Of a stretch of DNA of 64,000 nt, positions 38,294 to 55,464 are shown piece after piece; position 1 is the stretch's first letter; every line of letters begins with the position of its first letter. Origin of the DNA: a virus. The stretch lies in IMG/VR virus record IMGVR_UViG_3300008117_000079; one strand, 5' to 3'. Below the pieces are notes generated by a model that was given only the letters and a program-made list of their open reading frames with translations, was not told the DNA's origin and searched no databases. The position numbers and the translations under genes are program-made.

Positions 38294-38677
38294 TTATTTT
38301 AACGATTTTATTTTGTCTCGGAGTTCAATACACTTTTCAAAGTCTTGGTTTTGAATGTGACTTTTTAACTCGTCGTTTAACTTTTTAATTTCTTCTTGGT
38401 TTTGTTCAAGATTTTTAATCTTATCCCTTAACTCAACCGCAAGTTCAAACTCTTGATTCTCAATTACCATATCAAGTTTTTGTTTTAATTCATCAATCTC
38501 ATTTCTATTTTTTCCATTTTTAATGTAGACAACGTTTACTGACCCATCTTCGTTTGTGTAAACCCTTTTCTCAAGGTTATTATCACCAGTTAAAAACTGA
38601 TCAAAGTTAAAGGACTCATTTCTAGAAAAAAAGTCGTCAAATAATCTGTTAAATTTGTTAAAATTAAATCTATCCAT
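38294..38677 (-). CDS. small protein with two UVR (UvrB/UvrC-type) motifs
   Basis: Two copies of a UVR-like helix: ENQEFELAVELRDKIKNLE and QNQDFEKCIELRDKIKSLK (cf. the EFExAAxLRDxI consensus). Divergently oriented to the ClpC-like gene. Confidence 0.5.
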   Translation of the reverse strand: MDRFNFNKFNRLFDDFFSRNESFNFDQFLTGDNNLEKRVYTNEDGSVNVVYIKNGKNRNEIDELKQKLDMVIENQEFELAVELRDKIKNLEQNQEEIKKLNDELKSHIQNQDFEKCIELRDKIKSLK

Positions 38678-38836: not shown

Positions 38837-40882
38837 ATGGCAATAGAATTCATTGATGACAACGACAAGAACAAGAAAAAAAGTGATAGTGGAACTCCGG
38901 TTCTAGACAACTTTAGTAAAGACTTAAATAAGTTAGCTCAAGAAGGTAAATTAGACCCTGTAATAGGTAGAGAAGATGAAATTATTAGAATTGCACAAAT
39001 TTTATCTAGAAGAAAGAAAAACAACCCTATTATTATCGGTGAACCAGGTTGTGGTAAAACAGCAATTGTAGAAGGGTTGGCAATGATGATTCATAGTGGT
39101 GAATGTCCTAAAAATCTTTCAGAGAAAAGAATTGTTTCCCTTGAGATGAATTCAATTGTTGCCGGTACAAAATATCGTGGACAATTTGAGGAAAGAATGA
39201 AAGTAATAATTGAGGAACTTCAAAGTAATCCAAACATTATTCTTTTTATTGATGAGATTCATACAATGGTTGGTGCTGGTAATAGTTCTGGTTCACTTGA
39301 TGCCTCAAACATCTTTAAACCGGCCCTTTCTAGGGGTGAAATCCAATGTATTGGTGCTACAACCCTTGATGAATATAGAAAGCATTTTGAGAAGGATGGA
39401 GCTCTTGAGAGAAGATTCCAGAAAGTAATTGTAGAACCATCAACAAAGGCTGAAACTTTTCAAATTTTAAAAAATAGTAAAGAAAAGTATGAAGAACATC
39501 ACAAGGTAACATATTCAGACGAATCACTTCTTTTATGTGTAGAACTTGCCGATAGATATATTACAGATCGTGAGTTTCCGGATAAAGCTTTTGATATTAT
39601 TGATGAGGTTGGGTCAAGAATGCAAATTGATATTAAACTTCCTGAAAGTATTGAAAATCTAAAACAAGAACTTCTTGAAATTAAAAAGGAGAAGTCTGAC
39701 GTTATAAAAAAACAGAAATACGAAATGGCTGCTGAGTTAAGGGACCGGGAAAAATCAGTAATGTCATCACTTGATGCCGAAAGATTAAAATTTGAGGAAG
39801 AACTTAGAAATAGTAAAAGAGTAATTCCGGAAGATTTAATTTATGAGGTTGTTTCTAAAATGACTAAAATCCCGGTAAGCAAAATTAATGTTGACGAGAA
39901 AAACTCTCTTGTTAATTTAGAGAACGCACTAAATAGCTATGTAATTGGTCAGGCTGAAGCGGTAACAAAAATATCAAAATCCATTAGAAGAAATAGAATT
40001 GGAATTAAGGACCCAAATAGACCAATTGGTTCATTTATCTTCCTTGGGTCAACCGGTGTTGGTAAAACATATCTTGCAAAGAAACTAGCAAAAGAAATTT
40101 TTGGTAGTGAAGATAGTTTGATTCGTGTTGATATGTCTGAATATCAGGAAAAACATACTATATCAAGGCTTATCGGTTCTCCTCCAGGATATGTTGGTCA
40201 CGAAGAGGGTGGACAGCTTACAGAACAGGTTAAAAATAAACCATACTCTGTTATCTTATTTGATGAGATTGAAAAGGCAAATAAAGATATCTTCTCAACA
40301 CTTCTTCAAATGCTTGATGACGGGCATATGACCGACGGACTTGGAAGAAAAATTAACTTCAAAAATTGTTTAATTATTATGACATCAAATATTGGTGTTA
40401 GAAAATTACAGGATTTTGGAACTGGAGTTGGGTTTAAATCAAATAGTAGTGAAGCAGTAAGAGAAGAAGAAAAAAGAGATATCCTCAAAAAAGAATTAAG
40501 TAAGTTCTTCGCTCCAGAATTCCTAAATAGAATTGATGACGTTATTGTCTTTAACTCGCTTAAAAAAGAGCACGTTGACCGGATTGTTAAAATTGAAATT
40601 GAGAAGTTAGTTAACAGAATTGAGTCAATGAAATATAAAATTACATACGATGAGTCAGTTGTTGAATTGATATCTGAGGTTGGGTTTGATGAACAATTTG
40701 GTGCAAGACCAATTAAAAGGGCAATCCAGGATAAAATTGAAGACCTTATCTCTGAGAAAATATTACTAAATGAAGTTCTAGAAGATGTTGATTATAAATT
40801 GACAGTTGTAGATAAGGAAATTAAGATTGATGTTCTTATTGAGAATAAACCTAAAAGGGGTAGAAAGAAAAAGGAGGGTTAA
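38837..40882 (+). CDS. ClpC/ClpA-family AAA+ chaperone ATPase (two nucleotide-binding domains, no Clp_N domain)
   Basis: D1 Walker [30 protein letters not shown] Walker B. Internal UVR-like linker motif [15 protein letters not shown] as in ClpC. D2 Walker [25 protein letters not shown]. Starts directly at D1, so the N-terminal double Clp_N repeat is absent. Confidence 0.85.
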
Positions 40883-40898
40883 AAACCCTCCTTTTTTA
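40872..40898 (+). terminator. rho-independent terminator after ClpC-like gene
   Basis: GGAGGGTTAAAAACCCTCC hairpin followed by TTTTTT. Confidence 0.6.
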
Positions 40899-41681
40899 AT
40901 GTTTGGTATAACCAAGTTCCTCAATCATTAACTTACCTACCTTTATTCCGTTGTATGTATCATCAATAACAACGTACTCATTTCTTGTGTGGTAGTTGTA
41001 ATAACCAATTGAGATATTAAAACAAGATATCTTATATCTTTGATTTAAAGGATAAATATCCGTATATGGATGTCTATGGTATTTTGTGTCCTTTGGGAAA
41101 TGTTCTGTAATCAACCTTCCACCAACCTTAAAGAAATCACTATCCCGGGTAAACATTGGCGCACTCATAAGAAACTCAGAAATCATATTATTTTCTGGTG
41201 CATCAAACTGAATAACATAACCCACGTTTTCAAAGAAAGCCGAATCTGAGTTAAATGACCCTTTACATCCAGTTTCTTCAGCAACAAAGAACGCAGCTTT
41301 TAGGTTTGGCATTTCCTCAAGAAGTTCAAGACAGGCAAATACGCCACATTTATCATCACCACCAATACCGGTTGGTTCTCCTTTATCGTTATAAGCTTTA
41401 AGTGCTAGTTTTATCTCTTTCTGTGCGTTTGGAAGCATCTCCTCAACGACATTTATTGTATCAATATTGTGAACAGTGTCTGTGTGGGCTACAACACAAG
41501 GAAAATACTCAATATTGGTATCTGTTTGTTTTGTAGCATATACATTATAGTATTGGTCCAGATAAAATGGAATATTCTTTGACTCAAGCCAGTCAACAAT
41601 AAACTCAATCATTAAATCTTCCTGGTAGGTCTTAGTCGGAACCGAAAGGACCTTTTTTAGTAATTCAAAATTTCTTTCCAT
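40896..41681 (-). CDS. clan MH metallopeptidase-like protein (M20/M42-type motifs), short form
   Basis: Motif order CVVAHTDTVH ... GIGGDDKCGV ... VAEETGCKGS ... YNYHTRNE fits the His / Asp-Asp / Glu-Glu / His metal-ligand arrangement of M20/M28/M42 peptidases; 261 aa is shorter than typical. Confidence 0.5.
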   Translation of the reverse strand: MERNFELLKKVLSVPTKTYQEDLMIEFIVDWLESKNIPFYLDQYYNVYATKQTDTNIEYFPCVVAHTDTVHNIDTINVVEEMLPNAQKEIKLALKAYNDKGEPTGIGGDDKCGVFACLELLEEMPNLKAAFFVAEETGCKGSFNSDSAFFENVGYVIQFDAPENNMISEFLMSAPMFTRDSDFFKVGGRLITEHFPKDTKYHRHPYTDIYPLNQRYKISCFNISIGYYNYHTRNEYVVIDDTYNGIKVGKLMIEELGYTKH

Positions 41682-41709: not shown

Positions 41710-42744
41710 CTACAAAATTCTATTTAAAATATCTTTAACACTTTCAAATAATTCTGGGTGGTATAAATTTAAATAAAGATCCTCAAGATTGTCAACACTT
41801 CTTTTTTCCATCTTACCACCTTTTTTATATAATTTAAAAACTAGTTGTCCGGTATGTGGATCAATACTATCAAATATAACAGATATTTCCTTTTCTTTTA
41901 AATCAAGCATTTTATTGAACCCTCCAAGTTTTACAACAACATCATATATTTTTTGAAACTCGTCGTGAACCCCTTCTTCTTCAATTATCTCAATTATTTT
42001 GTCAAGTTCGTGACTAATCTCCATTTGGACTCCTTCTGAATCATAGTCATCACAAAATGAGTTATATCTAATCTCTTCCCAACCACCAATATCACTTTTT
42101 GGGTTATATTTTTCAAATAAAGATTTAAGAAGATGTTTAATATCATCATCTTCCATTTTTAACATTCTATACCAATTAAGTAAAATACCAACTGTTGTTT
42201 TAAATCTGGATCCGTGCCATACTTCAATAATTCCAAATCTATCAAATGGTTTTTCTGTTTCTCGTCTTATAATTTCTTTAGCCCCATCAATTTGACATCT
42301 TTCATTTTCATTTGCATATGCCGAAATGATATTTTCTACTTGATCTTCATAAATCCCAAGTATTCCATTTAAAATATCACTTCTTACTGAAGTTTTTGGT
42401 GAAAGTGATAGTCTTACAATTTTTTCAAATTTTTCTTTATTCTCATTGTTAAAACCATCTAAAATGTATCCTTCTTTCCATTCATCTCTATAGGTATACC
42501 AATCCCAGTCACTAGAGTCGCCATACATTATATAGTTATATGTCCAGGCGTCATTTTCATCAACACCTAATATCTCTAGGAAGTCACTGTCCTTATCAAA
42601 ATCTAAAGTAATTTGTGATGCCAATGGGTTTTTTTCGTTAATACGAATATCGTGGATTAAGTCATCCGGGTAATTCCATCTATTATACCCTGAGTCCTCA
42701 CCTTTTGCAATTTGTTTTAAAAATTCGTATGTATTTGTTGGCAT
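41710..42744 (-). CDS. hypothetical protein
   Basis: 344-aa acidic ORF; no motif. Confidence 0.45.
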   Translation of the reverse strand: MPTNTYEFLKQIAKGEDSGYNRWNYPDDLIHDIRINEKNPLASQITLDFDKDSDFLEILGVDENDAWTYNYIMYGDSSDWDWYTYRDEWKEGYILDGFNNENKEKFEKIVRLSLSPKTSVRSDILNGILGIYEDQVENIISAYANENERCQIDGAKEIIRRETEKPFDRFGIIEVWHGSRFKTTVGILLNWYRMLKMEDDDIKHLLKSLFEKYNPKSDIGGWEEIRYNSFCDDYDSEGVQMEISHELDKIIEIIEEEGVHDEFQKIYDVVVKLGGFNKMLDLKEKEISVIFDSIDPHTGQLVFKLYKKGGKMEKRSVDNLEDLYLNLYHPELFESVKDILNRIL

Positions 42745-42810
42745 ATAGTATAAATATGTTTATATTTGTATTTATATATAGTTCTTTGATAATAGTCATT
42801 TACAATATAC

Positions 42811-43201
42811 GGGGATGTATTGGATTTGACAGGCGTTGGTTGAATAAAAGGAGCATGTCGGGACTGAATTAATCTCGTTAAAAACTGATTCACTTTTTAA
42901 ATGGCAATGTGCTAAACAAAATGGAAGCTGTTGGGTTAATCCGCACTTCTGAGGTTGCTGTAGCGTAATCGCAACAAAAACCGGGGGCCGGCAGACATAT
43001 AGCCTAGCAACAGAAGTCGTAGTTTTATAGAGCAACCTGGTCGGCTCTCTAAATCCGGATTAGAAACCATTGGTTGTTGATTTACGATGGAAAAGAACAA
43101 ATCAACTATTTTGGGGTATTAGAAAATACCAACCTAAGCATGTAGTGGTCTTTTAAACAAGACGAGCTGGACCGGGGAGTCGGAGCCCCGCATCTCCACC
43201 A
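42811..43201 (+). ncRNA. ssrA: tmRNA (SsrA-like transfer-messenger RNA), CCA encoded
   Basis: 5' end GGGGATGTATTGGATTTGACAGGCG parallels the canonical tmRNA 5' end GGGGCTGATTCTGGATTCGACGGG. 3' end ...CGGGGAGTCGGAGCCCCGCATCTCCACCA gives a T-arm plus 7-bp acceptor pairing with the 5' GGGGATG and an encoded CCA. An internal ORF AAT GTG ... GTT GCT GTA GCG TAA (NVLNKMEAVGLIRTSEVAVA*) has its stop inside a hairpin (GTTGC TGTAGCGTAATC GCAAC), as helix 5 does in tmRNAs. ~390 nt length typical. Confidence 0.6.
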
Positions 43202-43208
43202 ATTAATA

Positions 43209-43235
43209 ACCTCATCATACGATGGGGTTTTTTTA
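43209..43235 (+). terminator. rho-independent terminator after tmRNA
   Basis: CCTCATCATACGATGGGG hairpin followed by TTTTTTT. Confidence 0.55.
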
Positions 43236-44316
43236 TGTCTTAAAATTATATATTATTGCTGTACGATTTCTATATTTTTGTGTAAACAAAAAAAGGGATC
43301 AGTTTCCTGTCCCTACTAATTTTTTTTGTCTTATAAGATTAAACCTAAAAAGAACGTTGAGATTACACGTTTTATTGAGAACCTTTAGAGTCATTATTTA
43401 TTCTACTCCTATCCACTTCCTTTTGAGAAGTATTTCTCAGTGACGGTCACTTAGGGGAACCACTCCTTGAGATTTGGACTACTCTCACCTTACTTGACTC
43501 TTTCCGAGGATGCCTCCCCAGTTCGTCCTTGCGGGACTAAAGGTTTTTCGGATAATTACACTTAGACTTGGGATCCTTGTGTGCAATGAACGGCTCATTA
43601 CTATGTAGTCACCTTTCATCCAAACCTGACGGACACTTTTCCTTTCTGATTAAATTAATTTCATAATTTTTTCTTAGGTTTTTGTGTCGTGGATTATGAA
43701 AGTAGTGGTCCGCCACCAGAGCCAGCTCATCTTTTGAACGAGCCGATACTCAACTACTCTCTGAAATGTCCCCATCTCAATATTTTAAGATTACTTCGTG
43801 ACTTATGCCTTGGTAGGCAAGGGTCAAGGATAATGTCAGCACCACCTGTTTGTTATCATACCTTTCGGTTTTAAGTATCCTCTGATATTGGGACACGCAA
43901 TAATAAAATTGGATAATCTTATTTTTTGCAATATCCCTACGAGTTATTCCTATTGGTGTTCCCACCTCAACCGGACGACCCACATCGCCCAATCATCTAA
44001 CCACTTTCCCTACAGCGTTGCCCTCGGTACTAAAGGTTAAACGGTATCCCGCTTGTATACTTAAGTTCGGTTACCCAAACCGCAGATCAGTTACACTACT
44101 GACCCACTTTATCCTGGTTTCCCAGTTTATTTATTGACTATATACGGCCAAATATCTTTATCAGTTTGTTACTCAGAATCAACCGCAAGGATTTCATCAT
44201 CAAACATTCTGAATGGATATTCTAATTTTTCAAAGAACGATTTCGGACGTTTCCGAATTTGTTTTACAAAGTTACGACACTTTTTTCAGTTTGTCAAGTA
44301 CTTTATGAACTTTTTT

Positions 44317-48436: not shown

Positions 48437-48532
48437 TTAATATTTTTTCATTTTTTATTTATTACATATAGGAAAATAAAAAACAACCACACAATATTTC
48501 TATTAATGTGGTTGTTTGCATCTTAAGCGGTG

Positions 48533-48606
48533 TGGACCTTGTAGGGTTTGAACCTACGACTCCTTGATTATGAGTCAAGCACTCTGACCAACTGAGTTAA
48601 AGGTCC
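48533..48606 (-). tRNA. tRNA-Met (anticodon CAT)
   Basis: Cloverleaf GGACCTT-TA-ACTC/AGTTGGTC/AGAGT-G-CTTGA/CTCATAA/TCAAG-GAGTC-GTAGG/TTCAAAC/CCTAC-AAGGTCC-A; all stems pair; CCA not encoded. Confidence 0.75.
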
Positions 48607-48709
48607 GGTTGAGGATGAGAAGTCCTCTGTGTTGTGATTCATACTAGGTTAAATCCAAATCAAGACCATATCCCACCGTAATTCCTTTCTCAAGGGAATA
48701 ACACAACAG

Positions 48710-48789
48710 TACTCCGAGAGGGATTTGAACCCTCACCCCGTAGGAATGCGGCTTAAACGCATCGTGTATACCAATTTCACCATCGGAGC
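48710..48789 (-). tRNA. tRNA-Leu (anticodon TAA)
   Basis: GCTCCGA acceptor pairs with TCGGAGT; anticodon arm ATGCG/TTTAAGC/CGCAT; 11-nt variable region; T-arm GAGGG/TTCAAAT/CCCTC. Confidence 0.6.
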
Positions 48790-48969
48790 ATATTTTAGAA
48801 AATATTTCTTCAGCATTCTACTCCCAGCCCCGAGGAATCGTATCTTACTTAGCCCGTCTCACCGCTGTATGGGTACTGAAGTTAATATTTTCTTTTTTTT
48901 CTACCTATTAAAAGTATAAACAAAACAAATGATACAAACAATAACATATTCATCTTTTAATTGTATTTG

Positions 48970-49069
48970 TAGACAAGAAAGGATTTGAACCTATACGACA
49001 ACTTTTACATTGTCTCGGTACAATCTTAGTTAGATCTACCTTAGCGTCTGCCGATTTCGCCACTTGCCT
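48970..49069 (-). tRNA. tRNA-like gene, ~100 nt, type II-like D-arm, anticodon arm not resolvable
   Basis: Acceptor AGGCAAG/CTTGTCT, D-arm TGGCGAAATCGGCAGACGC, T-arm ATAGG/TTCAAAT/CCTTT. The internal 48 nt (TAAGGTAGATCTAACTAAGATTGTACC + hairpin GACAA-TGTAAAAG-TTGTC) do not fold into a canonical 5-bp/7-nt anticodon arm. Confidence 0.35.
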
Positions 49070-49331
49070 TTGTTAACACCCTAATTTATTCAGCTTACAG
49101 GTGCTCCGGTTGTCCCCACCAAAAAGGTAGGTTAGAAATAGTTTCTTTCGTCCTCAACCCAGGTCGGGCAAACTTTCAGTCCACCTCTGTTGAGATGTGC
49201 GTTTCCACTGTATCTAATACAACTTACTTTCCCAGTCGTTCTCCCTATACGACAATGTACGTTCCCCTACGGATATCACTCCGTTTCTCATTATGTGGGG
49301 CACACTAGGGGGTGATGAACCCTACCACGTG

Positions 49332-49435
49332 TAGTCAGGACAGGATTTGAACCTATAAGAGACCCATTGTTAACCCTCATTTAATGTCTCAACCCCAGGG
49401 TGTTGAGGTGCGTCTACCAATTCCGCCACCTGACT
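49332..49435 (-). tRNA. tRNA-like gene, ~104 nt, type II-like D-arm, 6-bp stem with 8-nt loop (ACCCTGGG) at anticodon position
   Basis: Acceptor AGTCAGG/CCTGACT, D-arm TGGCGGAATTGGTAGACGC (Leu/Ser/Tyr-like), T-arm ATAGG/TTCAAAT/CCTGT. The middle has CTCAAC-ACCCTGGG-GTTGAG followed by a long hairpin GAGAC...(22 nt)...GTCTC. Paralogous in layout to 48970..49069. Confidence 0.35.
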
Positions 49436-49581
49436 ATTTTTTACTGTTCACGTAGAACACACAATCTTTTTTTCGTTTGCTCTTAAAGACTATCTCTTTA
49501 TCTTCCTTAACTTGCCACCATATTCCTATCCAAGCATGACATTTCTTTTCTATTGTATAATTCATAACTTTTAATTTTTTG

Positions 49582-49655
49582 TAGTCCCGACAGGATTCAA
49601 ACCTGTGACCTTCGCCTTAGAAGGGCGTTGCTCTATTCAGCTGAGCTACGGGACC
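49582..49655 (-). tRNA. tRNA-Arg (anticodon TCT)
   Basis: GGTCCCG-TA-GCTC/AGCTGAATA/GAGC-A-ACGCC/CTTCTAA/GGCGA-AGGTC-ACAGG/TTTGAAT/CCTGT-CGGGACT-A; only mismatch A27:A43. Confidence 0.7.
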
Positions 49656-49665
49656 ATATTTTTTG

Positions 49666-49740
49666 TATTCCGTATGGGATTTGAACCCATGATCTCTTCC
49701 GTGAAAGGGAAGTGTCCTAAACCAGCTAGACGAACGGAAC
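49666..49740 (-). tRNA. tRNA-Glu (anticodon TTC)
   Basis: GTTCCGT acceptor; anticodon arm CTTCC/CTTTCAC/GGAAG perfect; T-arm ATGGG/TTCAAAT/CCCAT. Confidence 0.75.
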
Positions 49741-50200
49741 ATAAAACCACATTACAAAACCATAAAGGTACAACTCCTGCGGTCGCGTTGTTCATTACAA
49801 TATTTTAAATCACTTTCGCCCCCTGTATAGACATGCGTCAGATGCTTAAGGTCAGCCTTAACTATTAAGGGAGCCACCCGTGATTTAGATTTTTAAAAAA
49901 TGGTAAGACCTTAAGATTTACTTATTCGTGGGTTACCCCATCCTTACTACCCACACCTCGCCTTTAACATCCGTTCTACCCAAACCATCGTTTATTACCA
50001 GTTAACCTCCCGGAAAACTTTGAGTACCTCCTCAACACGTTAGTCTGATAGGGGCTCCGTTTTACTCATCATTTCTGATTCTCTATGAGAGTCTGCTGAC
50101 GTAGGTCTATCTGCTATCTTACCAATCTATTATTTCAAAGAACTTCTTTCCTTATTTGTTTTACAAAGATAAGGAGAATTTTTCAATCCTCCAAATCTTT

Positions 50201-51103
50201 TTATTTAATATTCAAAAACGTTCCAGAACTGCCTGCCATTGTTGTTGGAAGTTTACCATCCCAAGCATTTGCCTTCAAATACTCAATATACATCGGTGTT
50301 AGTTTTTGTTGTTTCAACTCAATTGCAAGTGATGCCGCTTTTGCGTTGATAATTGTTTCTGCCGAGTCGGCTCTTGCGACAGCCACCTTACGTTTTCCTT
50401 CTGCAATTGCAGCAATTGCTTGTTGCTCGGAGGCTTCAGCTTGTTGGATAGCTTTTGTTTTTGCAATAATTGATTCCTGGAGCGCCTCCGGTGGTGTAAT
50501 GTTTGTTCTAAGTTGTGACACATCAAACCACTTTGTTAATCGTTTATTACACTCAACAACAATTGCCGCTTCAAACTGTTGACGATTAGAAAAAATACTA
50601 TCAACTTCCCATTTATTTGCTTCATCATTAACCGCCCCAACAATTGCGTTTTTAAGCCACCCTTGTTCAATTTCTTTAACACCCAATCGTAGGTTTTCAA
50701 ACATATCACCAATTGCTTCCGGTTTCAACGAGTAGTTAAACGATGGTTTAATAGTTGCTGAGAACCCACCCTTTGTAATTACAACCTGATCATCATACTC
50801 AATATGTTGTTGAAAGGTTGGGAACTCAAGAACTTGCGTGAACCAGGTGTTATAAACAACCCACCCAGTTTTGTACTGATATGAAGCAACCCCTCTTTCA
50901 GATCCGGACAAGTTAACCACAATACCTTTGTGACCGGCGTCAATTCTCTCAAGTGAGTATGGTTGGAATACGCCAATCAATACACCCACAACACCAACAA
51001 CAACTCCTTTTAGAATACTTGAGGACTCATCGTTAATTTTACCTTTTACAATCATCACCCCTGCGATAATCAAAAACACTAATGTTACAATCAAACTAAT
51101 CAT
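50201..51103 (-). CDS. SPFH/band-7 (prohibitin/HflC-like) domain membrane protein
   Basis: N-terminal TM helix (ISLIVTLVFLIIAGVMIV), then an SPFH-type domain and a C-terminal Ala/Glu/Gln-rich coiled coil (AIQQAEASEQQAIAAIAEGKRKVAVARADSAE...) typical of band-7 proteins. GC content noticeably above the phage average. Confidence 0.7.
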   Translation of the reverse strand: MISLIVTLVFLIIAGVMIVKGKINDESSSILKGVVVGVVGVLIGVFQPYSLERIDAGHKGIVVNLSGSERGVASYQYKTGWVVYNTWFTQVLEFPTFQQHIEYDDQVVITKGGFSATIKPSFNYSLKPEAIGDMFENLRLGVKEIEQGWLKNAIVGAVNDEANKWEVDSIFSNRQQFEAAIVVECNKRLTKWFDVSQLRTNITPPEALQESIIAKTKAIQQAEASEQQAIAAIAEGKRKVAVARADSAETIINAKAASLAIELKQQKLTPMYIEYLKANAWDGKLPTTMAGSSGTFLNIK

Positions 51104-51317
51104 TTTCTTTTTCTTTTTTGTTAAATAAATTTGTTATTTCTTTTACTATTAGCTTTATTTGAAAAACGGTGTAGAATAAAGCTATAAAACTAGCACCGAT
51201 TTGTAGGATTTCATCAACCTCCCGGTTGATTACATAACTGAAAAATAAATTCATTATGTAGATGTAAATCATTGTGGTACCTACAACACCCCACAACCCC
51301 AGTTTAAACTTTAACAT
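51096..51317 (-). CDS. small membrane protein upstream of SPFH gene (possible partner protein)
   Basis: The ORF-track ORF 51096..51473 runs through tRNA-Asp. The plausible CDS starts at the internal Met MLKFKLGLWGVVGTTMIYIYIMNLFFSYVINREVDEILQIGASFIALFYTVFQIKLIV... (two hydrophobic helices) and overlaps the SPFH gene start by 8 nt. Confidence 0.3.
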   Translation of the reverse strand: MLKFKLGLWGVVGTTMIYIYIMNLFFSYVINREVDEILQIGASFIALFYTVFQIKLIVKEITNLFNKKEKEND

Positions 51318-51346
51318 TTCATTTTGTTTAGTTTTTAATTGTTTAG

Positions 51347-51418
51347 CGGTCCATCCGGGAATTGAACCCGGAGCACATCCGTGACAGGGATGTATGTTAG
51401 CCACTACACCAATGGACC
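51347..51418 (-). tRNA. tRNA-Asp (anticodon GTC)
   Basis: GGTCCAT acceptor; anticodon arm CATCC/CTGTCAC/GGATG (loop identical to bacterial tRNA-Asp); T-arm CCGGG/TTCAATT/CCCGG. Confidence 0.75.
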
Positions 51419-51927
51419 ATTTTAAGGGTGAACACGGGCCTAGCGTGCCGTCTTTTAGGAAAGGCCCTCCCACCTATCCACCCTTTTTGTTGTAGCAACG
51501 CCTTGGAATCGCACCAAGTTAAACCGGCTTATGAGACCGGTGAGATCCTCTACCTCCCGCCTGCTATATCTGTGATACAGTAGTTGACAACCACACTCGT
51601 TTCACCATCTTTTGTCAACAGGTCTATGAACTTAACGAGTTCACCTTTTCTTACCACCACAATATTTTAAAAAGTTGTGATTTATATGTATCAGCATCAT
51701 TACTCCATTATTAAATGCTTCACGGCGGATTAGACCGTGCTAGTCGGAGCAAGCTAGTTCAACACATACTACCTAAAGTTTTCCCCCTCGCTTTAGTGTA
51801 ATAAATCACAATGTTTTCAAAGAACTTTTTTCCCTTTATCTGGGGGTAGGATACCAATTTCTAAACTTCCTACCCCCATCGTTTGTCTTACAAAGATATG
51901 TCAAATTTTTTAATCTACCAAATCTTT

Positions 51928-52221
51928 TTAATGTAATCTTATAAGATATCTCATAATTTTTTCAATATCTTCTTTTGTTTGGTATCCCAAAACATCATTT
52001 GTTAAAATTGTATCATAACAAAGTTCCCAGTTGTTTTCATCACCTTTTAGGATTGCAACTTCCCACTCATCTTCGTTACTTGTATAAGACATATATCTAT
52101 CACCAAAAGGAGATTTAAATCTAACACAAGAAATTCCATATCCTCCCGGAAAGAAAATAGTACCCTGAAGACCAACACCCATGCTATGGGGTTTAAACTT
52201 TATATCACTAAATTTTACCAT
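51928..52221 (-). CDS. hypothetical protein
   Basis: 97-aa ORF inside the tRNA/RNA island. Confidence 0.35.
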   Translation of the reverse strand: MVKFSDIKFKPHSMGVGLQGTIFFPGGYGISCVRFKSPFGDRYMSYTSNEDEWEVAILKGDENNWELCYDTILTNDVLGYQTKEDIEKIMRYLIRLH

Positions 52222-52633
52222 ACAACAAAGGTATATTTAATTTTTTATATTTCCAATATGTCAAAGAACAAAAAACCCATCTTTTTTGAAGATGGGTTTC
52301 TAATATTTTATGTATTAATTTATCACACCATCTTCACATAGATAGAATCCTCAGCTTCTGCTAACCCTCTCAAAGATATGATATGTAAATTTTTCATTTG
52401 CAGTTTTATTATTTTTGTTATAAATATATAATACTTTTAAAAAGTGTAAATATTAAACAAAAAATTGTTTTTTATGTTTAATCTTTCGTGTGTAAGTATT
52501 TTTTGACTCCTCAACCCGGGAAACAAATCTACCGTCAAAGAATCCGGCTTTTACCTGGTCTTCCCTGATCTGAGTTCTTTTCATCTTATGTTGGTCATAC
52601 GTTTTCATAATCGTTTATTTTTTTAAAGTTTTG

Positions 52634-52707
52634 TACCCCTAGCAGGACTTGAACCTGCAAAATTCAGATCCTAAATCTGACGCGTATACCTATTCCGCCA
52701 TAGGGGC
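52634..52707 (-). tRNA. tRNA with anticodon TAG in a class I (short variable arm) body
   Basis: GCCCCTA-TG-GCGG/AATAGGTATA/CGC-G-TCAGA/TTTAGGA/TCTGA-ATTTT-GCAGG/TTCAAGT/CCTGC-TAGGGGT-A. UAG anticodon would read Leu CUA/CUG but lacks the long variable arm of Leu tRNAs. Confidence 0.5.
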
Positions 52708-52716
52708 ATTTTGTTG

Positions 52717-52789
52717 AGAGAGGTGAGGGACTTGAACCCCCGTACTGTGGGTTGCAACCACAGACCTAACGCCGCTCGGACAACCTCTC
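52717..52789 (-). tRNA. tRNA-Cys (anticodon GCA)
   Basis: GAGAGGT acceptor with U73 discriminator (Cys identity element); anticodon arm CTGTGG/TTGCAAC/CCACAG; T-arm GGGGG/TTCAAGT/CCCTC; weak D-stem. Confidence 0.55.
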
Positions 52790-52793
52790 ATAA

Positions 52794-53249
52794 TTAGCGG
52801 CAGTGGTGGTCTGCCGCCCTTGTTGCAATTTGGTTGTGGGGTTTAATGTTTGTCTTGTACCCCAGTGAAGTCGCCCAACCAACAGCCGGTTGGACTAATT
52901 TTGAGCTGAAGTGTTTTAAGTCGCTGTTGTAATCTAAATCTATTTCCACCTTTACATTCACTTTTGTGGTTAACCACTCTGCAACCTCAATTGAATAATC
53001 GGCCTCATTCCATAATCTGGTCCATTTATCTTTAATCTTTTTTGTCTTTTGTTTGTGATAGATATAATGAACCCCCCTATTCCCAAATCTATAAGCAATT
53101 GCTGTAACATATATAGTGCTTCTTCTATGATTCTGAGAGTCAGTACCAATGTGTACCTCAACCCAGGGACATTCCTTTAATATATCAACAGTATGTTTTA
53201 CAATGTCAGGAACAGATTCTCCGGTTACTTTTCTGAATACTCTGTTCAT
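52794..53249 (-). CDS. YkuK/DUF458-like RNase H-fold protein
   Basis: 151 aa with the HIGTDSQ motif characteristic of the YkuK family of RNase H-like proteins; located between tRNA genes. Confidence 0.45.
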   Translation of the reverse strand: MNRVFRKVTGESVPDIVKHTVDILKECPWVEVHIGTDSQNHRRSTIYVTAIAYRFGNRGVHYIYHKQKTKKIKDKWTRLWNEADYSIEVAEWLTTKVNVKVEIDLDYNSDLKHFSSKLVQPAVGWATSLGYKTNIKPHNQIATRAADHHCR

Positions 53250-53272
53250 AATTTCCTTAATTTATTTGTTTG

Positions 53273-53348
53273 TGGAACCATAGGGAGTTGAACCCCAACC
53301 TTTGGATTTTCAGTCCAACGTGACACACCACACTTACACCATAGTTCC
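53273..53348 (-). tRNA. tRNA-Phe-like (anticodon GAA), atypical D-arm
   Basis: Acceptor GGAACTA/TGGTTCC, anticodon arm TTGGA/CTGAAAA/TCCAA, T-arm TGGGG/TTCAACT/CCCTA are canonical. The D region (GTGTAAGTGTGGTGTGTCAC, 20 nt) is over-long and poorly paired. Confidence 0.5.
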
Positions 53349-53350
53349 TT

Positions 53351-53848
53351 TTATTTAATTTCAAATGCACAACGCATCGGTCTTTTCAATTTTTGAGAAT
53401 CCTCAAAGTTTCCAACAACAACACCATCTTTAATTGTAAAAGCGTGACCTTTAACAAGTACAAAAAAAGTTCCCTTTGGATTTTTCTTAACAAAGGTACC
53501 AACAGTCATTTTTCTTGTAACCACTTCACCTTTAACCTTAACGGGGTAATCCAAAGATCTTAACATATAGTCGTTCTTTCTTTCACCAACAATATGAACT
53601 TTTTTTCCGTTTATCATAACTCTGTTATCGGACATTTTAACAAATTTTAATGGAGTCCCAAATGTCCCTCTTCTTGGTTGTCTATTAAACTCTTCAGCGA
53701 CATACTTGTGTGCATAGTCATATGAAACCTCAAATGAGGACGCAAATGCTCTTACAACACAATCGTTTGTTTCACCTTTTGCAATTTTAGAGTCACTATA
53801 CCCTTTGATTGCCTTTCCTGTTGCTTCGTATGGTAGTCTGTTTTTCAT
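53351..53848 (-). CDS. hypothetical protein with possible Cys/His hydrolase dyad
   Basis: 165 aa; conserved-looking NDCVVRAFA (Cys) and KGHAFTIKDGVVVGN (His) segments suggest a papain-like/permuted thiol hydrolase, but this is speculative. Confidence 0.35.
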   Translation of the reverse strand: MKNRLPYEATGKAIKGYSDSKIAKGETNDCVVRAFASSFEVSYDYAHKYVAEEFNRQPRRGTFGTPLKFVKMSDNRVMINGKKVHIVGERKNDYMLRSLDYPVKVKGEVVTRKMTVGTFVKKNPKGTFFVLVKGHAFTIKDGVVVGNFEDSQKLKRPMRCAFEIK

Positions 53849-53884
53849 ATCTCAAAGATACAAAAAGTTTTTTAACCACCAAAA

Positions 53885-53955
53885 TTATTTTTAGCGCGTG
53901 GTGTAGGAATTGAACCCACCCAGTGAGGTTTTGGAGACCTACCCGACACCTTGTC
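53885..53955 (-). tRNA. tRNA-Trp-like (anticodon CCA), compact D-arm
   Basis: Acceptor GCGTGGT/ACCACGC, loop CTCCAAA with anticodon CCA, T-arm GTGGG/TTCAATT/CCTAC. D-arm reduced (GACA-AGGTG-TGTC); 71 nt. Confidence 0.45.
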
Positions 53956-54160
53956 TGTACCACGCAAATGCCCGACCTAGCTCGGGACCGACATCGGATA
54001 TTTAAATAGTTCTGGTCAACCACTCGCCACCCACCAATCTCTTGTATCAAACTTTTTGTAGTCCAAACGATTCCTTTATTGAACTTAATCATTTTGGTAA
54101 TATCTCCTACGACTCATTCTCAACTCACTTGCCTAAGCCTTGTCCGTTGTGAACTATTTG

Positions 54161-54234
54161 TGTGTATGATGGGTTACGATCCCATTACCTTTGGTTCCAC
54201 AAACCAACGCTCTACCGATTGAGCTACATACACC
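54161..54234 (-). tRNA. tRNA-His (anticodon GTG) with encoded G-1
   Basis: (G)GTGTATG-TA-GCTC/AATCGGTA/GAGC-G-TTGGT/TTGTGGA/ACCAA-AGGTA-ATGGG/ATCGTAA/CCCAT-CATACAC-A; extra 5' G as expected for His; unusual T-loop ATCGTAA. Confidence 0.7.
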
Positions 54235-54389
54235 ATATGTTGAGGAAAGCAGTGGTAACGATCCACAATCGGATTCTCACCGATCGCAATGCTTAGCAGG
54301 CATGCCCCGTCGCCTTCAGGGATTACTTTCCATAGAGCGTAGTAGGACTGCAGTTCCTTGAGGCACCTACGCAAGTTATTCCTCTTTTG

Positions 54390-54462
54390 TGTTCACGACG
54401 GGTTACGATCCCATTACCTCCGACATATCAGATCGGCACTCTACCAATTGAGCTACGTGAAC
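54390..54462 (-). tRNA. tRNA-Ile (anticodon GAT)
   Basis: GTTCACG acceptor; anticodon arm CCGAT/CTGATAT/GTCGG; T-arm ATGGG/ATCGTAA/CCCGT (same atypical T-loop). Confidence 0.7.
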
Positions 54463-54468
54463 TTATTG

Positions 54469-54541
54469 CGGACAAGGAAGGGTACGATCCTACAACCTAT
54501 CGGTTAACAGCCGATTGCTCTACCAATTGAGCTACTTGTCC
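54469..54541 (-). tRNA. tRNA-Asn (anticodon GTT)
   Basis: GGACAAG acceptor; anticodon arm ATCGG/CTGTTAA/CCGAT perfect; T-loop ATCGTAC. Confidence 0.7.
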
Positions 54542-54550
54542 ATTTTGTTG

Positions 54551-54631
54551 TGGGAGAGGAGGGACTTGAACCCCCAAGGCTTTCGCGACAGATTTACAGT
54601 CTGCTGAGCCAACCAATTGCTCAACTCTCCC
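54551..54631 (-). tRNA. tRNA-Tyr (anticodon GTA), long variable arm
   Basis: GGGAGAG acceptor; D-arm GAGC/AATTGGTTG/GCTC; anticodon arm GCAGA/CTGTAAA/TCTGT; variable CGCGAAAGCCTT; T-arm GGGGG/TTCAAGT/CCCTC. Confidence 0.65.
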
Positions 54632-54794
54632 AAGTTTAGGAAATCAGAAGATGGTTCTGTGGACATCTGATTTTACGATTAGCTTTACTATGACAGTTAA
54701 AACTCCCACATAACTACGAACTACTGACACGTTAACGTTATGTACTTCCCTAATCAACCTATTGTACACCCTATAGGACTTGAACCTATGACCT

Positions 54795-54868
54795 GTTGTA
54801 TCGACCGGTTACGATCCGATTCTCCCCATATTAAAAGTATGGTGCTTTCCCGATTAAGCTACGAGGGG
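54795..54868 (-). tRNA. tRNA-Lys-like (anticodon TTT), acceptor stem disrupted; possible pseudo-tRNA
   Basis: D-arm GCTT/AATCGGGA/AAGC, anticodon arm CCATA/CTTTTAA/TATGG and T-arm ATCGG/ATCGTAA/CCGGT are intact, but the 5' strand CCCCTCG pairs only 3 bp with the 3' strand CGATACA. A second orphan T-arm (ATAGG/TTCAAGT/CCTAT) follows at ~54765-54790. Confidence 0.3.
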
Positions 54869-54886
54869 TTTCGTTTGTCATACTTG

Positions 54887-55075
54887 TCACTTTTCATAAG
54901 ACATTAGTTTTTGATTGTTTATTTTTATTTCTGTTTCCACTCTTTTAAGTTCTTCACTTAAATCCCCACGATATGATGGGTCCTTACTAATTTTAACAAG
55001 GCTAATATAGTAATTATTTAAACCACTCAACTTACCTTTGATAGAAATTTTTTCACATTCTTCGTTTGTTATCAT
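54887..55075 (-). CDS. hypothetical small protein
   Basis: 62-aa ORF between tRNA genes; weak. Confidence 0.2.
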   Translation of the reverse strand: MITNEECEKISIKGKLSGLNNYYISLVKISKDPSYRGDLSEELKRVETEIKINNQKLMSYEK

Positions 55076-55092
55076 AACTTATAGTTTTTTAG

Positions 55093-55166
55093 TAGGGTAG
55101 ACAGGACTTGAACCTGCATCTTCCTCGTCCCAAACGAGGCGGCTTAGCCAATTAGCCAACTACCCT
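55093..55166 (-). tRNA. tRNA-Pro (anticodon TGG)
   Basis: AGGGTAG-TT-GGCT/AATTGGCTA/AGCC-G-CCTCG/TTTGGGA/CGAGG-AAGAT-GCAGG/TTCAAGT/CCTGT-CTACCCT-A. Confidence 0.7.
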
Positions 55167-55179
55167 ATGTTTATTATTG

Positions 55180-55253
55180 TTGTCCCGGAAGGGGTTGAAC
55201 CTCCATACTCCTCGTTCAAAGTGAGGTGACTCTGCCAATTCGTCTACAGGACA
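55180..55253 (-). tRNA. tRNA-Gln (anticodon TTG)
   Basis: TGTCCTG acceptor (one G-U); 3-bp D-stem; anticodon arm CCTCA/CTTTGAA/CGAGG (A31:C39 mismatch); T-arm GGAGG/TTCAACC/CCTTC. Confidence 0.6.
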
Positions 55254-55464
55254 TTATAAAAGAGGAGAGATGAGGTGCCGACCCCCATACCTTTCGGTAC
55301 TCACCGTTTTCAAGACGGGATCACAGGCCGCTGTGATTACCTCTCCTTTTAAGGCCGATATGTCAAAGAACATTTTCTTTTTTGAGGTCCCTGTCGGAAC
55401 TGACCCGACAACTCAACTTTACAAGAGTCGTATTTTTCCAGTTAAACTAAGAGACCAATTTAAA

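Follow-up and report, generated by a model that had tools for sequence, protein, structure and literature searches.

A one-piece phage tmRNA with a conserved 21-codon tag, genetically linked to a ClpC-like unfoldase and a putative M20 peptidase

Complete ssrA genes have been described in several large phages. The mycobacteriophage Bxz1 group and Bacillus phage G (PMC4131195), as well as huge phages that also encode SmpB (PMC7162821), carry them alongside many tRNA and translation genes, and they occur in T4-like aquatic myoviruses, the pelagimyophages and the OM43 phage Melnitz (PMC9004378). An ARAGORN survey found tmRNAs in 2.3% of the phage genomes examined, 402 of 18,146 (PMC9004378), in agreement with the remark in a first-pass annotation of the DNA studied here that tmRNA genes are uncommon in phages. 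The published ideas on why phages carry tmRNA are speculative (PMC9004378, PMC7162821); for the pelagimyophages and Melnitz, the authors considered translation maintenance or the degradation of host proteins for amino acids (PMC9004378). Neither a tag conserved within a phage lineage nor a linkage of tmRNA to ClpC and peptidase genes is reported in these phage tmRNA papers (PMC4131195, PMC7162821, PMC9004378).

The tmRNA described here is encoded in the window, by which we mean the whole 64,000-nucleotide stretch of viral DNA that was analyzed (IMG/VR record IMGVR_UViG_3300008117_000079). The window also encodes a portal, a large terminase, a major head protein, and a T4 gp21-like prohead protease, which bear out the phage origin attributed to the tmRNA at first pass. 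The phage is T4-like and from freshwater; its host, judging by promoter motif and G+C content only, probably belongs to the Bacteroidota. With the Bxz1-group, phage G, and huge-phage genes, the window shares a complete ssrA in a large phage amid many tRNA and translation genes; those tmRNAs were found by ARAGORN or tFind, whereas ARAGORN detects only 2 of 69 members of the window's family. With the pelagimyophages and Melnitz it shares an ssrA in a T4-like aquatic myovirus. Their tmRNAs, however, are permuted and two-piece, with tags of the alphaproteobacterial host lineage and a glutamine riboswitch, whereas the window tmRNA is one-piece, with a phage-specific tag and with ClpC, a peptidase, and GOLLD RNA as neighbors.

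Like bacterial SsrA (tag ANDENYALAA in Escherichia coli and GETNYALAA in Bacteroides), the window RNA is one-piece and has the G3:U pair, the ACCA end, and helix 2; PK1 is followed by a resume codon with A at −4, and the stop codon lies in helix 5, after which come further pseudoknots. Unlike bacterial SsrA, it has an 8-nt T-loop, AGUCGGAG, is encoded by a phage with no smpB nearby, specifies a 21-codon tag with a conserved internal motif and a (T/A)VA rather than an ALAA end, and keeps a fixed neighborhood of ClpC, M20 peptidase, and GOLLD. Since tag endings other than ALAA are known in some bacteria, the (T/A)VA end is compatible with membership among the tmRNAs.

We confirm that the phage-encoded tmRNA at 42811-43201 is genuine. 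The first-pass annotation had placed a tmRNA with an encoded CCA at these positions and named a covariance-model match as a way to check it; in an Rfam scan, the tmRNA model RF00023 (gathering score, 47) aligns over its full length (1-374) to exactly 42811..43201 on the + strand, with 86.7 bits and an E-value of 2.9e-32, and relatives score 55-115 bits. This E-value, the family-wide covariation, and a 21-codon frame kept in 67/67 unique relatives put the tmRNA above chance. The gene is 391 nt long. The 5′ strand of its acceptor stem, GGGGAUG (42811..42817), pairs with CAUCUCC (43191-43197), and the third pair is a G3:U wobble, an alanine identity element. By direct reading, the discriminator A is at 43198 and the CCA is indeed encoded, at 43199-43201; 68 of 86 relatives likewise encode the ACCA. 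Ten acceptor variants occur among the relatives, all of them 7/7 paired and all with G3:U (pairing was a selection criterion there), and four of the acceptor-stem pairs show compensatory changes.

The gene is flanked by signals of its own. A promoter-like region, TTGGCA-17-TATATT (42738..42768, + strand), matches a sigma-70-like promoter at 10 of 12 positions and overlaps a TAnnTTTG sequence, TATATTTG, at 42761-42768. TAnnTTTG, which we take to be the Bacteroidota −7 promoter element, precedes the tmRNA in 60 of the 63 unique upstream sequences of the family. On the 3′ side, an intrinsic terminator with a 9-bp stem and a T run (43208..43236, + strand) starts 7 nt past the CCA, and hairpin-plus-T-run sequences likewise stand 3′ of the tmRNA in relatives.

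Relatives of the window tmRNA are abundant in IMG/VR. More than 116 IMG/VR stretches match a 16-mer from the resume region, and we recovered 99 distinct full-length family sequences, on viral contigs of 5-304 kb. A search of 185,579 species genomes with an exact 18-mer from the resume region, which would miss diverged cellular relatives, gave 12 matches, none in a tmRNA and all of them chance matches inside unrelated ORFs. Searches by blastn and megablast against 50,697 GenBank phage records returned GOLLD fragments only and no tmRNA relative (blastn E <= 1e-5), and the tag strings had no match in the literature. This tmRNA lineage is large and has been seen only on viral contigs. One could still read the gene as a recently captured host ssrA or an att-site remnant whose tag is the host's own, given that ssrA is a common prophage integration site with fragments found in prophages (PMC9004378) and that the cellular search was by exact 18-mer only. 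We regard this as extremely unlikely. The gene is complete and has a promoter and a terminator to itself, the 99 distinct sequences on viral contigs are deeply diverged yet keep a constant synteny, and the exact 18-mer matched no tmRNA in the species genomes. Moreover, the native Bacteroides tag, GETNYALAA (bioRxiv 10.1101/2025.03.18.644028), is different: it is short, unlike the 21-residue tag of the phage.

The secondary structure was supported by nhmmer and direct pair counting, in a family alignment of more than 400 columns. Over 33 relatives, 98.4% of the cells for 64 tested pairs are paired, a figure that drops to about 40% if the 3′ partners are slid. Compensatory changes occur in 28 of the 64 pairs, and the observed covariation was reached by 0/500 shuffles. 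All elements lie on the + strand. PK1 (42859..42892), placed by the Rfam alignment, consists of stem 1 CGGGA/UCUCG (nt 49-53/63-67) and stem 2 UGAAUUA/UGAUUCA (nt 55-61/76-82), which are 98.7-100% paired with two compensatory pairs each. Farther along, the stop codon sits inside a helix-5-like hairpin, as had been noticed at first pass. Folding gives GGUU..GCU.GCG[UAAU]CGC.AAC..AACC at 42953..42982 with the UAA in the apical loop (−9.9 kcal/mol, z −2.64, for this strand), and one relative, L048, has the compensatory GUAAC/GUUAC where the window has GUUGC/GCAAC. PK2 (42985..43018) combines stem 1 GGGC/GCCU (nt 175-178/192-195) with stem 2 GAC/GUC (nt 184-186/206-208), both 100% paired, with compensatory G-C to A-U, U-A to C-G, and G-C to C-G changes.

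A candidate PK3 (43029..43058), read by hand, is an AGAGC/GCUCU hairpin (nt 219-223/234-238) whose loop pairs imperfectly with a downstream UCCGG; the module is invariant among the relatives that have it, and other relatives have a different PK3 module. It is followed by a PK4-like H-type pseudoknot (43067..43106). Its stem 1, CCAUUG/CGAUGG (nt 257-262/275-280), is 99.5% paired with a compensatory C-G to U-A change, and its stem 2, GUUGAUUU/AAAUCAAC (nt 266-273/289-296), where an insertion splits the alignment, is 81-99% paired, also with compensatory changes. A terminal hairpin, GGGGUAU/AUACC..CC (43113..43134), comes directly before the 3′ strand of helix 2 and is 100% paired, with compensatory changes in four of seven pairs. 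The stems of PK1, PK2, and the PK4-like element covary, which accomplishes the mapping of pseudoknots by covariance that the first-pass annotation had suggested. One helix in the Rfam alignment, CUUCUG in the tag with CAGAAG farther downstream, was excluded because the tag side varies (CAAGAAG or UUCUGAAG in many relatives) while CAGAAG is invariant. RNAalifold also predicted a small hairpin, UGGCA/UGCUA, around the resume codon, a stretch that was fixed by the search word in the first set of relatives.

The T-arm (43173..43190, + strand) departs from the usual form. Its 5-bp stem, CGGGG/CCCCG, is 100% paired, with compensatory changes in four of five pairs, and in place of the canonical 7-nt T-loop (UUCGAnn), which the window tmRNA does not have, it carries the 8-nt loop at 43178-43185. 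An 8-nt loop is present in 39 of 86 relatives and a canonical 7-nt loop in the other 47; the 8-nt variant is also found in other phage tmRNAs. ARAGORN called no tmRNA on the whole window and none in the sub-region with -m down to -ps80, and no canonical ALAA tag in another frame, an outcome that would have spoken against the first-pass tag. At -ps70 it produced a "permuted" tmRNA call in the sub-region that was nonsensical. When the T-loop was replaced in silico by UUCGAGU, ARAGORN called a tmRNA with identical ends, so the miss is caused by the T-loop. A family that is abundant in IMG/VR is in this way nearly invisible to ARAGORN. Since this program was used by two published phage surveys, the prevalence of phage tmRNA has been underestimated.

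A loop that differs from the near-universal UUCGA could impair interactions with EF-Tu or SmpB; against this, the 8-nt loop is kept in the 39 family members and in other phage tmRNAs. The same loop might uncouple binding from function, as would suit a decoy that acts against the host by titrating its SmpB or blocking its trans-translation. Such a role was proposed for the DS6A mycobacteriophage fragment, which has the tRNA-like domain only, and an inhibitory effect of such domains is described (PMC4131195). A decoy, however, would need no PK1, no A at −4, no resume codon, no conserved ORF, no helix 5, and no downstream pseudoknots, and selection keeps them all; we therefore hold this role to be very unlikely.

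The tag template occupies 42903..42968 on the + strand: the resume codon GGC (42903-42905), which opens the 21 sense codons for GNVLNKMEAVGLIRTSEVAVA, and the stop codon UAA (42966-42968). The GGC lies 10 nt downstream of PK1 and aligns with the resume codon of the Rfam model. It follows UAAAU in the window, and an A at −4 is present in 176/176 relatives; by the A86 rule of E. coli, the frame is set four nucleotides downstream (PMC2481249). With the 21-codon ORF present in every unique relative, the frame is settled. The first-pass reading, ...LIRTSEVAVA, was in the correct frame, but its length of up to 20 aa was one codon too short and its resume codon, described as uncertain, is fixed at GGC. 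It had rightly called the tag long and ending in AVA rather than ALAA: the tag has 21 residues and ends in EVAVA, and AVA turns out to be a minority variant in a family where most tags end in TVA. Together with the alanine borne by the tmRNA, 22 residues are added.

An alternative tag, ATKTGGRQTYSLATEVVVL, starting at a GCA at tmRNA nt 161, was called by ARAGORN on the T-loop-swapped sequence, and the UAAUC that precedes this ORF resembles the UAGUC of E. coli. The ORF is not conserved. GCA occupies its start column in the window only. Among 67 relatives, ORFs that open at that column measure anything between 0 and 57 aa, and in 23 of the 67 the aligned segment has a length not divisible by three. 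It also starts 78 nt after PK1 and crosses PK2, whose stems covary as RNA. The chance that the real tag lies there is negligible.

The tag peptide is strongly conserved. We recovered 170 complete tags from IMG/VR viral contigs, all of 21 aa and representing 20 distinct peptides, with the motif G-[ND]-[VL]-L-x-[KN]-[ML]-x-x-[LIV]-G-L-[LIV]-[RS]-x5-V-A; the window's EVAVA ending is replaced by EVTVA, EVSVA, or AVVA in relatives. The tags are free of indels, and changes fall mostly at third codon positions (9, 5, and 15 variable sites at first, second, and third positions). Invariant residues are encoded by several synonymous codons (GGA, GGT, or GGG for Gly; GCT, GCC, or GCG for Ala; GTT, GTA, or GTG for Val), and the same is seen at partly variable positions (AGA, CGT, or CGC for Arg; CTT or TTG for Leu). 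Loci found through their peptidase gene are free of any ascertainment by the resume 16-mer; there the first codons are GGC GAC GTT TTA TCG, with V3 and L4 kept synonymously. Even strongly diverged tmRNA bodies (nhmmer scores of about 131, versus 300-400) still encode GNVLDKMATIGLIREDAAVVA. Purifying selection on the tag at the peptide level is evident from the pattern of synonymous substitution, a length that does not vary, and the retention of the stop codon. This bears on whether the RNA might serve in ribosome rescue only, for example after mRNA and tRNA cleavage induced by the phage or by host defense, with a functionless tag. In E. coli, tmRNA-dependent phage propagation needs no particular tag identity (PMC2481249), and a location in a tRNA island fits translation maintenance. 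Selection on the peptide, as seen in these three features, argues against rescue alone, and we judge it quite unlikely.

The genes around the tmRNA suggest what might read the tag. About 2 kb upstream on the same (+) strand, at 38837..40882, the window encodes a 681-aa ClpC-like double AAA+ unfoldase (Pfam AAA, AAA_lid_9, AAA_2, and ClpB_D2-small). Its best match among solved structures is Staphylococcus aureus ClpC, 6em8 (723 bits, ClpC residues 149-806), and it resembles Firmicutes ClpC (S. aureus 6em8 and Bacillus subtilis MecB) in having about 50-55% identity over D1, the M-domain, and D2, with the M-domain region kept and a VGF/AGF loop. An (I/V/A)GF loop separates ClpA, ClpC, and ClpE from ClpB. 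The ClpP-docking G-VGF loop is present in the 6em8 alignment ("gtgvgfksn" opposite "r-fagfgg" of ClpC), where the Walker A and B motifs and the KYRG and GYVG pore loops are also intact, and this phage ClpC homologue looks active. Unlike Firmicutes ClpC, it is phage-encoded, has no McsB or ClpP that we could find, and is missing the N-domain that binds MecA or phospho-arginine: the 6em8 alignment starts at residue 149 and the PHROG profile at position 161, only 159 nt separate the gene from the one upstream, and public gene calls likewise give 681 aa. The Clp_N domain is the part of ClpC that binds adaptors and phospho-arginine. As in the ctsR-mcsA-mcsB-clpC operon, a small McsA-like protein with a UVR domain adjoins the ClpC gene. 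This 127-aa protein (38294..38677, − strand) resembles the C terminus of McsA (NF053706, E 2.4e-12, below the curated cut-off), has matches to the C-terminal UVR domain of UvrB/UvrC, and is present in 25 family loci.

Between the ClpC gene and the tmRNA, at 40896..41681 on the − strand, lies a gene for a putative 261-aa PepD/PepT-like M20 metallopeptidase that consists of the catalytic domain only. Pfam Peptidase_M20 matches it at 25.8 bits (cut-off, 24.6; E 1.2e-5). The match to TIGR01893 (4.7e-9) falls far short of that model's cut-off, and phrog_4191, "peptidase," gives 2.6e-34. The stretch aligned with PepD (2qyv) contains AHTDTVH, GGDDKCG, and AEETG, which we take to be the M20 metal and catalytic motifs (H-x-D, bridging D, and E-E), and the lid/dimerization domain is absent. 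Also on this side, the gene for a 344-aa protein (41710..42744, − strand) is divergent from the tmRNA, and the protein had no confirmed relative in viral contigs in the related-locus search. On the other side, a GOLLD RNA (43354..43761, − strand; RF02032, 319.1 bits versus a gathering score of 150) converges with the tmRNA, and 15-16 tRNA genes, identified by ARAGORN and Rfam (48532..55456, − strand), belong to the same RNA-gene island.

This arrangement holds across the family. ClpC is encoded 2.8-5.6 kb upstream of the tmRNA, on the same strand, in 52/53 informative relatives, and the M20 peptidase stands between the two in 79/79 informative loci. In the reverse test, the tmRNA was present in 73 of 80 loci fetched by means of the peptidase, and the other seven contigs end on that side, so that all informative loci (73/73) have it. 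In 58 of 82 informative loci of the family, GOLLD lies downstream of the tmRNA and on the other strand. The synteny is evidence of linkage rather than of recognition. Two huge phages have ClpC together with GOLLD but neither the tmRNA nor the peptidase, which indicates that ClpC has functions independent of the tag. A tblastn search of the 64-kb window and the family loci with E. coli queries found neither smpB nor clpP (best E = 1.6); SmpB and ClpP must be supplied by the host or encoded in parts of the phage genome outside the DNA analyzed.

The tag might be read simply by the host. Its terminal Val-Ala could be readable by host ClpXP, Lon, FtsH, or Tsp, and it is possible, if doubtful, that this is a functional tmRNA whose tag host ClpXP, Lon, FtsH, or Tsp/Prc treats as an ordinary nonpolar degron, the proximity of ClpC and the peptidase reflecting a gathering of translation and proteostasis genes in an island with tRNAs and GOLLD. 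Many bacterial tags likewise end in small hydrophobic residues such as this V-A; with no clpP in the window, host machinery would be needed anyway; the huge phages have ClpC and GOLLD without this tmRNA; and the island also holds the 15-16 tRNA genes. A generic degron, however, leaves unexplained the conservation of the full 21-residue length and of V3, L4, G11, L12, and R/S14 across diverged RNA bodies, as well as the near-absolute linkage with ClpC and the peptidase, and the host-type tag (GETNYALAA) is short and different. Because length and sequence are both conserved, we take the tag to be a signal that is specifically recognized, not just a hydrophobic tail of a generic kind.

We therefore lean, with somewhat better than even confidence, toward a functional one-piece phage tmRNA whose tag is read by the phage ClpC and whose products are trimmed by the M20 peptidase. 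On this proposal, transcription of the tmRNA would start at its own promoter and end at its own terminator, and the 5′ leader would be removed. Host AlaRS would charge the RNA with alanine, recognizing G3:U and the encoded ACCA, and host SmpB and EF-Tu would bring it to ribosomes stalled on broken mRNAs. Translation would resume at the GGC at 42903, and alanine followed by the encoded peptide would be joined to the nascent chain. The phage ClpC is the most likely tag reader; its VGF loop would dock on ClpP, presumably that of the host, and the peptides set free would be cut down to amino acids by the neighboring M20 peptidase. We infer the steps from charging and the SmpB partner through tagging to the protease and the role of the peptidase. 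The first-pass annotation had imagined tagged proteins going to a Clp-type ATPase of the phage's own; that enzyme proves to be ClpC-like, without the N-domain, and it still needs ClpP, of which the window shows none. The synteny is a good reason to propose that the tag feeds the phage ClpC, and it lends the idea strong, if circumstantial, support.

There may be a precedent for a tag moving from one protease to another. Gur and Sauer, in 2008, reportedly found that the SsrA tags of Mycoplasma and Mesoplasma were re-targeted from ClpXP to Lon. Those tags are long (27 aa, with 22 added here) and have an unusual end (FA, with VA here), and we propose as an analogy that in both cases the determinants are spread along the tag and that tag and protease appear to have coevolved away from ClpXP. 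The mycoplasma system is cellular, is experimentally proven, and has Lon as its reader, whereas the reader predicted here is a phage ClpC without an N-domain. More tentatively, the phage tag, a ClpC that reads it without an adaptor, and the peptidase could form a self-contained tagging and disposal system orthogonal to the host's. If so, the phage could rescue ribosomes and recycle what stalled, mostly host, translation had produced into amino acids, neither relying on host ClpXP and SspB nor competing with them. GOLLD RNA is reported to bind ribosomes, and the adjacent GOLLD may be part of the same ribosome-directed module.

A tag conserved in about 170 viral contigs and genetically tied to a candidate reader and a peptidase provides a concrete system, and the conserved tmRNA-GOLLD pairing is a new lead on the function of GOLLD. 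Should the phage ClpC read the tag, the two would make an orthogonal pair of degradation tag and unfoldase for synthetic biology in Bacteroidota, and a re-targeted SsrA degron, comparable to the one that switched to Lon in Mycoplasma, would be known for the first time from a virus. In infection, the module would free ribosomes and give the phage control over the breakdown of tagged polypeptides, most of them from the host, to amino acids.

The tmRNA model search that the first-pass annotation had suggested matches RF00023 over its full model length at 42811-43201 (+), with 86.7 bits (E 2.9e-32) against a gathering score of 47; these are exactly the ends at which that annotation, made by reading the sequence alone, had placed a tmRNA. 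Read directly, the acceptor stem has 7 bp (GGGGAUG/CAUCUCC) with a G:U at the third pair. In a separate alignment, four of its pairs vary in a compensatory way. The discriminator A and then CCA (43199-43201) follow this stem, so the tmRNA-like ends with encoded CCA were correctly recognized. ARAGORN reports 15 tRNAs and no tmRNA in the window, and still none in the tmRNA sub-region with relaxed thresholds. ARAGORN is defeated by the T-arm, CGGGG-AGUCGGAG-CCCCG, whose loop is 8 nt long and lacks the standard UUCGA. When the T-loop was replaced in silico by UUCGAGU, ARAGORN called a tmRNA with exactly the same ends. Checking with ARAGORN, another step proposed at the outset, thus fails on the unmodified sequence and agrees on the ends after the swap; the tag ORF that it then chooses is a different one, which we rejected because it is not conserved. 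Computation establishes this feature as a functional tmRNA gene.

Scanning IMG/VR for exact matches to the T-arm gave four viral contigs with Rfam-positive tmRNAs, three of which share the window's tag frame. A 16-mer from the region of the resume codon (the first tag codon), TGGCAATGTGCTAAAC, matched at least 116 viral stretches, and about 105 of the matches listed are tmRNAs with the same 21-codon tag, which we refer to as the family. Since this set is biased by its search word at the resume region, we collected 80 more loci through the neighboring peptidase protein (220 relatives in IMG/VR). Nhmmer found a family tmRNA in 73 of these 80; in the remaining 7, the sequence on the tmRNA side is shorter than 1.2 kb. 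The combined searches yielded 170 complete tags, which represent 20 distinct peptides, and 99 different tmRNA sequences of full length, on contigs of 5 to 304 kb. ARAGORN detects 2 of 69 family members. Encoded CCA occurs in 68 of 86, including all 39 with the 8-nt loop, and is not universal. In one genome each of 185,579 bacterial and archaeal species, the 18-mer TGGCAATGTGCTAAACAA had 12 matches, about the chance expectation, all within unrelated ORFs. A blastn search of GenBank phage records returned no detectable relative of the window tmRNA, and a literature search for the tag strings found none.

The resume codon GGC (42903-42905) aligns with the Rfam consensus resume codon and lies 10 nt downstream of pseudoknot PK1; this spacing is 12 nt in E. 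coli (PMC2481249). In 176 of 176 relatives the base at position -4 is A, the counterpart of E. coli A86, from which the reading frame is set four nucleotides further on (PMC2481249). From the resume column, the ORF is exactly 21 codons long in 67 of 67 unique full-length relatives; the 30 unique tag sequences contain no indels, always retain the stop codon, and have 9, 5, and 15 variable sites at codon positions 1, 2, and 3, respectively. Invariant residues use synonymous codons: GGA/GGT/GGG for Gly11, GTT/GTA/GTG for Val18, and GCT/GCC/GCG for Ala21. Position 14 is Arg (AGA/CGT/CGC) or Ser, and position 10 is Leu (CTT/TTG), Ile, or Val. The first codons vary too in the unbiased, peptidase-fetched set, where a start of GGC GAC GTT TTA TCG (GDVLS) retains Val3 and Leu4 by synonymous changes. 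Even three loci with a strongly diverged RNA body (nhmmer score about 131, versus 300-400) encode a 21-residue tag, either GNVLDKMATIGLIREDAAVVA or its GNVLDKMAAIGLIREDAAVVA variant. The family motif is G-[ND]-[VL]-L-x-[KN]-[ML]-x-x-[LIV]-G-L-[LIV]-[RS]-x5-V-A. The window's own tag, GNVLNKMEAVGLIRTSEVAVA, is a singleton variant, most members ending in TVA; the tag of a more distant phage tmRNA, L230, ends in ...VGLIRTEEVAVA. The first-pass annotation had seen a long, atypical tag, which stands; its length of up to 20 residues and its uncertain resume codon are replaced by 21 codons from a fixed GGC. Its stop codon in a helix-5-like hairpin is likewise found, at 42966-42968, within the apical loop of helix 5. 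The 21-codon frame is the translated one and its peptide is under selection, both established by computation, and we are close to certain that tmRNA identity and tag frame are both right.

Mapping the pseudoknots by covariance, as had been recommended, we examined an alignment of 33 diverse relatives for helix 2, PK1, PK2, and a PK4-like pseudoknot (both stems of each), the terminal hairpin, and the T stem. Overall, 98.4% of cells are paired; sliding the 3' partners by 1-3 columns lowers this to 37-43%. Compensatory changes occur in 28 of 64 pairs, and 0 of 500 shuffles reached the observed covariation score. For PK3 of the window, an AGAGC/GCUCU stem plus a loop pairing is a thermodynamic guess, and other members have a different PK3 module. 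Module swapping between lineages is visible in the PK2-PK4 blocks. In loci L039, L082, and L084, the acceptor-stem halves come from different family subtypes and do not pair, a sign that these assemblies may be recombinant or chimeric. A group I intron (RF00028) interrupts the T-loop of some members directly after GGACGAGGGUU, as in loci L024 (3940-4164, -, 94.9 bits) and L076 (2963-3186, +, 85.9 bits); the same insert is seen by sequence in L110. The 8-nt T-loop arm also occurs in the phage tmRNAs L001 (1957-2314, +), L218, L219, L220/L221, L227, L228, and L230. The tags of such RNAs (ANDNAFAPVAQAA, ANTVIEKVKGFFTADNYGFDQLAAA, ANNDVEIDDFAIAA, GDIFADATVGHFVTEGAEVVA, and GDNIINKLSSVGLIRTEEVAVA) differ from the family tag, so the loop is a trait spread more widely in phage tmRNAs, or in their hosts. 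The tag ANDNAFAPVAQAA, on a one-piece RNA, looks alphaproteobacterial.

The window is phage DNA of 32.4% G+C, encoding a portal protein, large terminase, major head protein, and T4 gp21-like prohead protease. Upstream of the tmRNA, at a distance of 43-73 nt, are a sigma-70-like site and a TAnnTTTG motif; a strong intrinsic terminator starts 7 nt past CCA. TAnnTTTG, the Bacteroidota -7 promoter element, is present in 60 of 63 unique upstream regions of the family; by our rough estimate, chance would place it in <10% of regions at this base composition. The motif and the 32% G+C point to a Bacteroidota host, perhaps of the Flavobacteriia. Between TAnnTTTG and the mature 5' end, within the presumed leader, is a conserved box, AGTTCTTTGA(A/T)AAT, at 42780-42793. 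Relatives have it at the corresponding place, and it may serve in processing or regulation. Compared with the native SsrA tag of Bacteroides, GETNYALAA (bioRxiv 10.1101/2025.03.18.644028), the phage tag is quite different, sharing the initial Gly alone. An M23 peptidase (44567-45250, -) and a GH19-like endolysin (45896-46717, -) lie amid RNA genes, and an SPFH/Band-7 protein (50201-51103, -) inside the tRNA array. Rfam also places a 104-nt tRNA at 54765-54868 (-, 37.6 bits), where ARAGORN reports none; it may contain an intron or insert, and locus L002 has similar over-long matches (122-235 and 472-578).

Where the flanking sequence is long enough, 52 of 53 loci encode a ClpC-like ATPase 2.8-5.6 kb upstream of the tmRNA and on its strand, and 79 of 79 encode an M20-type peptidase between the two; a 344-aa protein whose fold was not recognized is present in 47 of 87. 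The window's ATPase (38837-40882) is nearest to Firmicute ClpC (S. aureus 6em8, 723 bits, aligned to ClpC residues 149-806), and exact copies are encoded by 21 metagenome contigs from JGI and ENA, several with sample numbers that we take to be freshwater lake projects. Its Walker motifs and pore loops are intact. It keeps the G-VGF ClpP-docking loop and lacks the N-domain, which makes it a ClpP-dependent unfoldase unable to use N-domain-acting adaptors or phospho-arginine signals. The peptidase (40896-41681) corresponds to the catalytic domain of a PepD/PepT-like M20 enzyme, with H-x-D, D, and E-E segments. A 127-aa UVR-domain protein (38294-38677, -), divergently transcribed beside ClpC, is nearest to the McsA C-terminus (E 2.4e-12, below the cut-off); it is reminiscent of the Firmicute mcsA-clpC operon and may be a regulator or adaptor. 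With tblastn and E. coli queries, neither smpB nor clpP was found in the window or the family loci.

A full-length GOLLD RNA (RF02032, 319 bits; 43354-43761, -) is convergent with the tmRNA at a distance of 150 nt, with terminators back-to-back. Of 82 family loci, 58 have GOLLD downstream of the tmRNA and on the other strand. A 2025 cryo-EM paper on GOLLD does not mention tmRNA and cites ribosome pull-downs with GOLLD (PMC12286853). A 71-aa ORF (43777-43992, -) directly precedes GOLLD on its 5' side and shares its strand; kept in 49 of 74 family loci, it may encode a small GOLLD-associated protein. It also adjoins GOLLD in the huge phages LR756502 and LR745206 (36-47% identity), which carry a 59-60% identical ClpC near GOLLD; the 17-kb stretches examined there contain no peptidase and no family tmRNA.

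The rarity of phage tmRNA noted at first holds, with 2.3% of phage genomes in a published ARAGORN survey (PMC9004378). Known cases are the mycobacteriophage Bxz1 group and Bacillus phage G (PMC4131195), huge phages (PMC7162821), and two-piece tmRNAs of pelagiphages and of phage Melnitz (PMC9004378). Judged against the literature searched, what is new is a large lineage, confined to phages, that has a conserved tag of its own, the 8-nt T-loop common to other phage tmRNAs with different tags, the near-invisibility of the family to ARAGORN, and the fixed arrangement of ClpC, peptidase, tmRNA, and GOLLD.

From general tmRNA biology, host AlaRS would charge the tmRNA via G3:U and ACCA, host SmpB and EF-Tu would deliver it, and translation would resume at GGC. 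The tag would then be read by the phage ClpC, and the M20 peptidase would finish breakdown to amino acids. The chief competing explanation has the tag read by host proteases, the linkage being that of a general translation and proteostasis island. Conservation of the peptide from end to end implies that it has a specific receptor, and ClpC is the module's only AAA+ unfoldase, locked to the tmRNA across deep divergence. Without the domain by which cellular ClpC receives substrates, it would need another means of selecting them. There is also a precedent in Mycoplasma, where a long SsrA tag reportedly co-evolved with a different protease, Lon. We consider the co-inherited phage ClpC the most likely reader; a ClpC channel for tagged proteins is a tentative proposal, to which we give a little less than an even chance. 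The reader of the tag is the step that gives this finding its interest.
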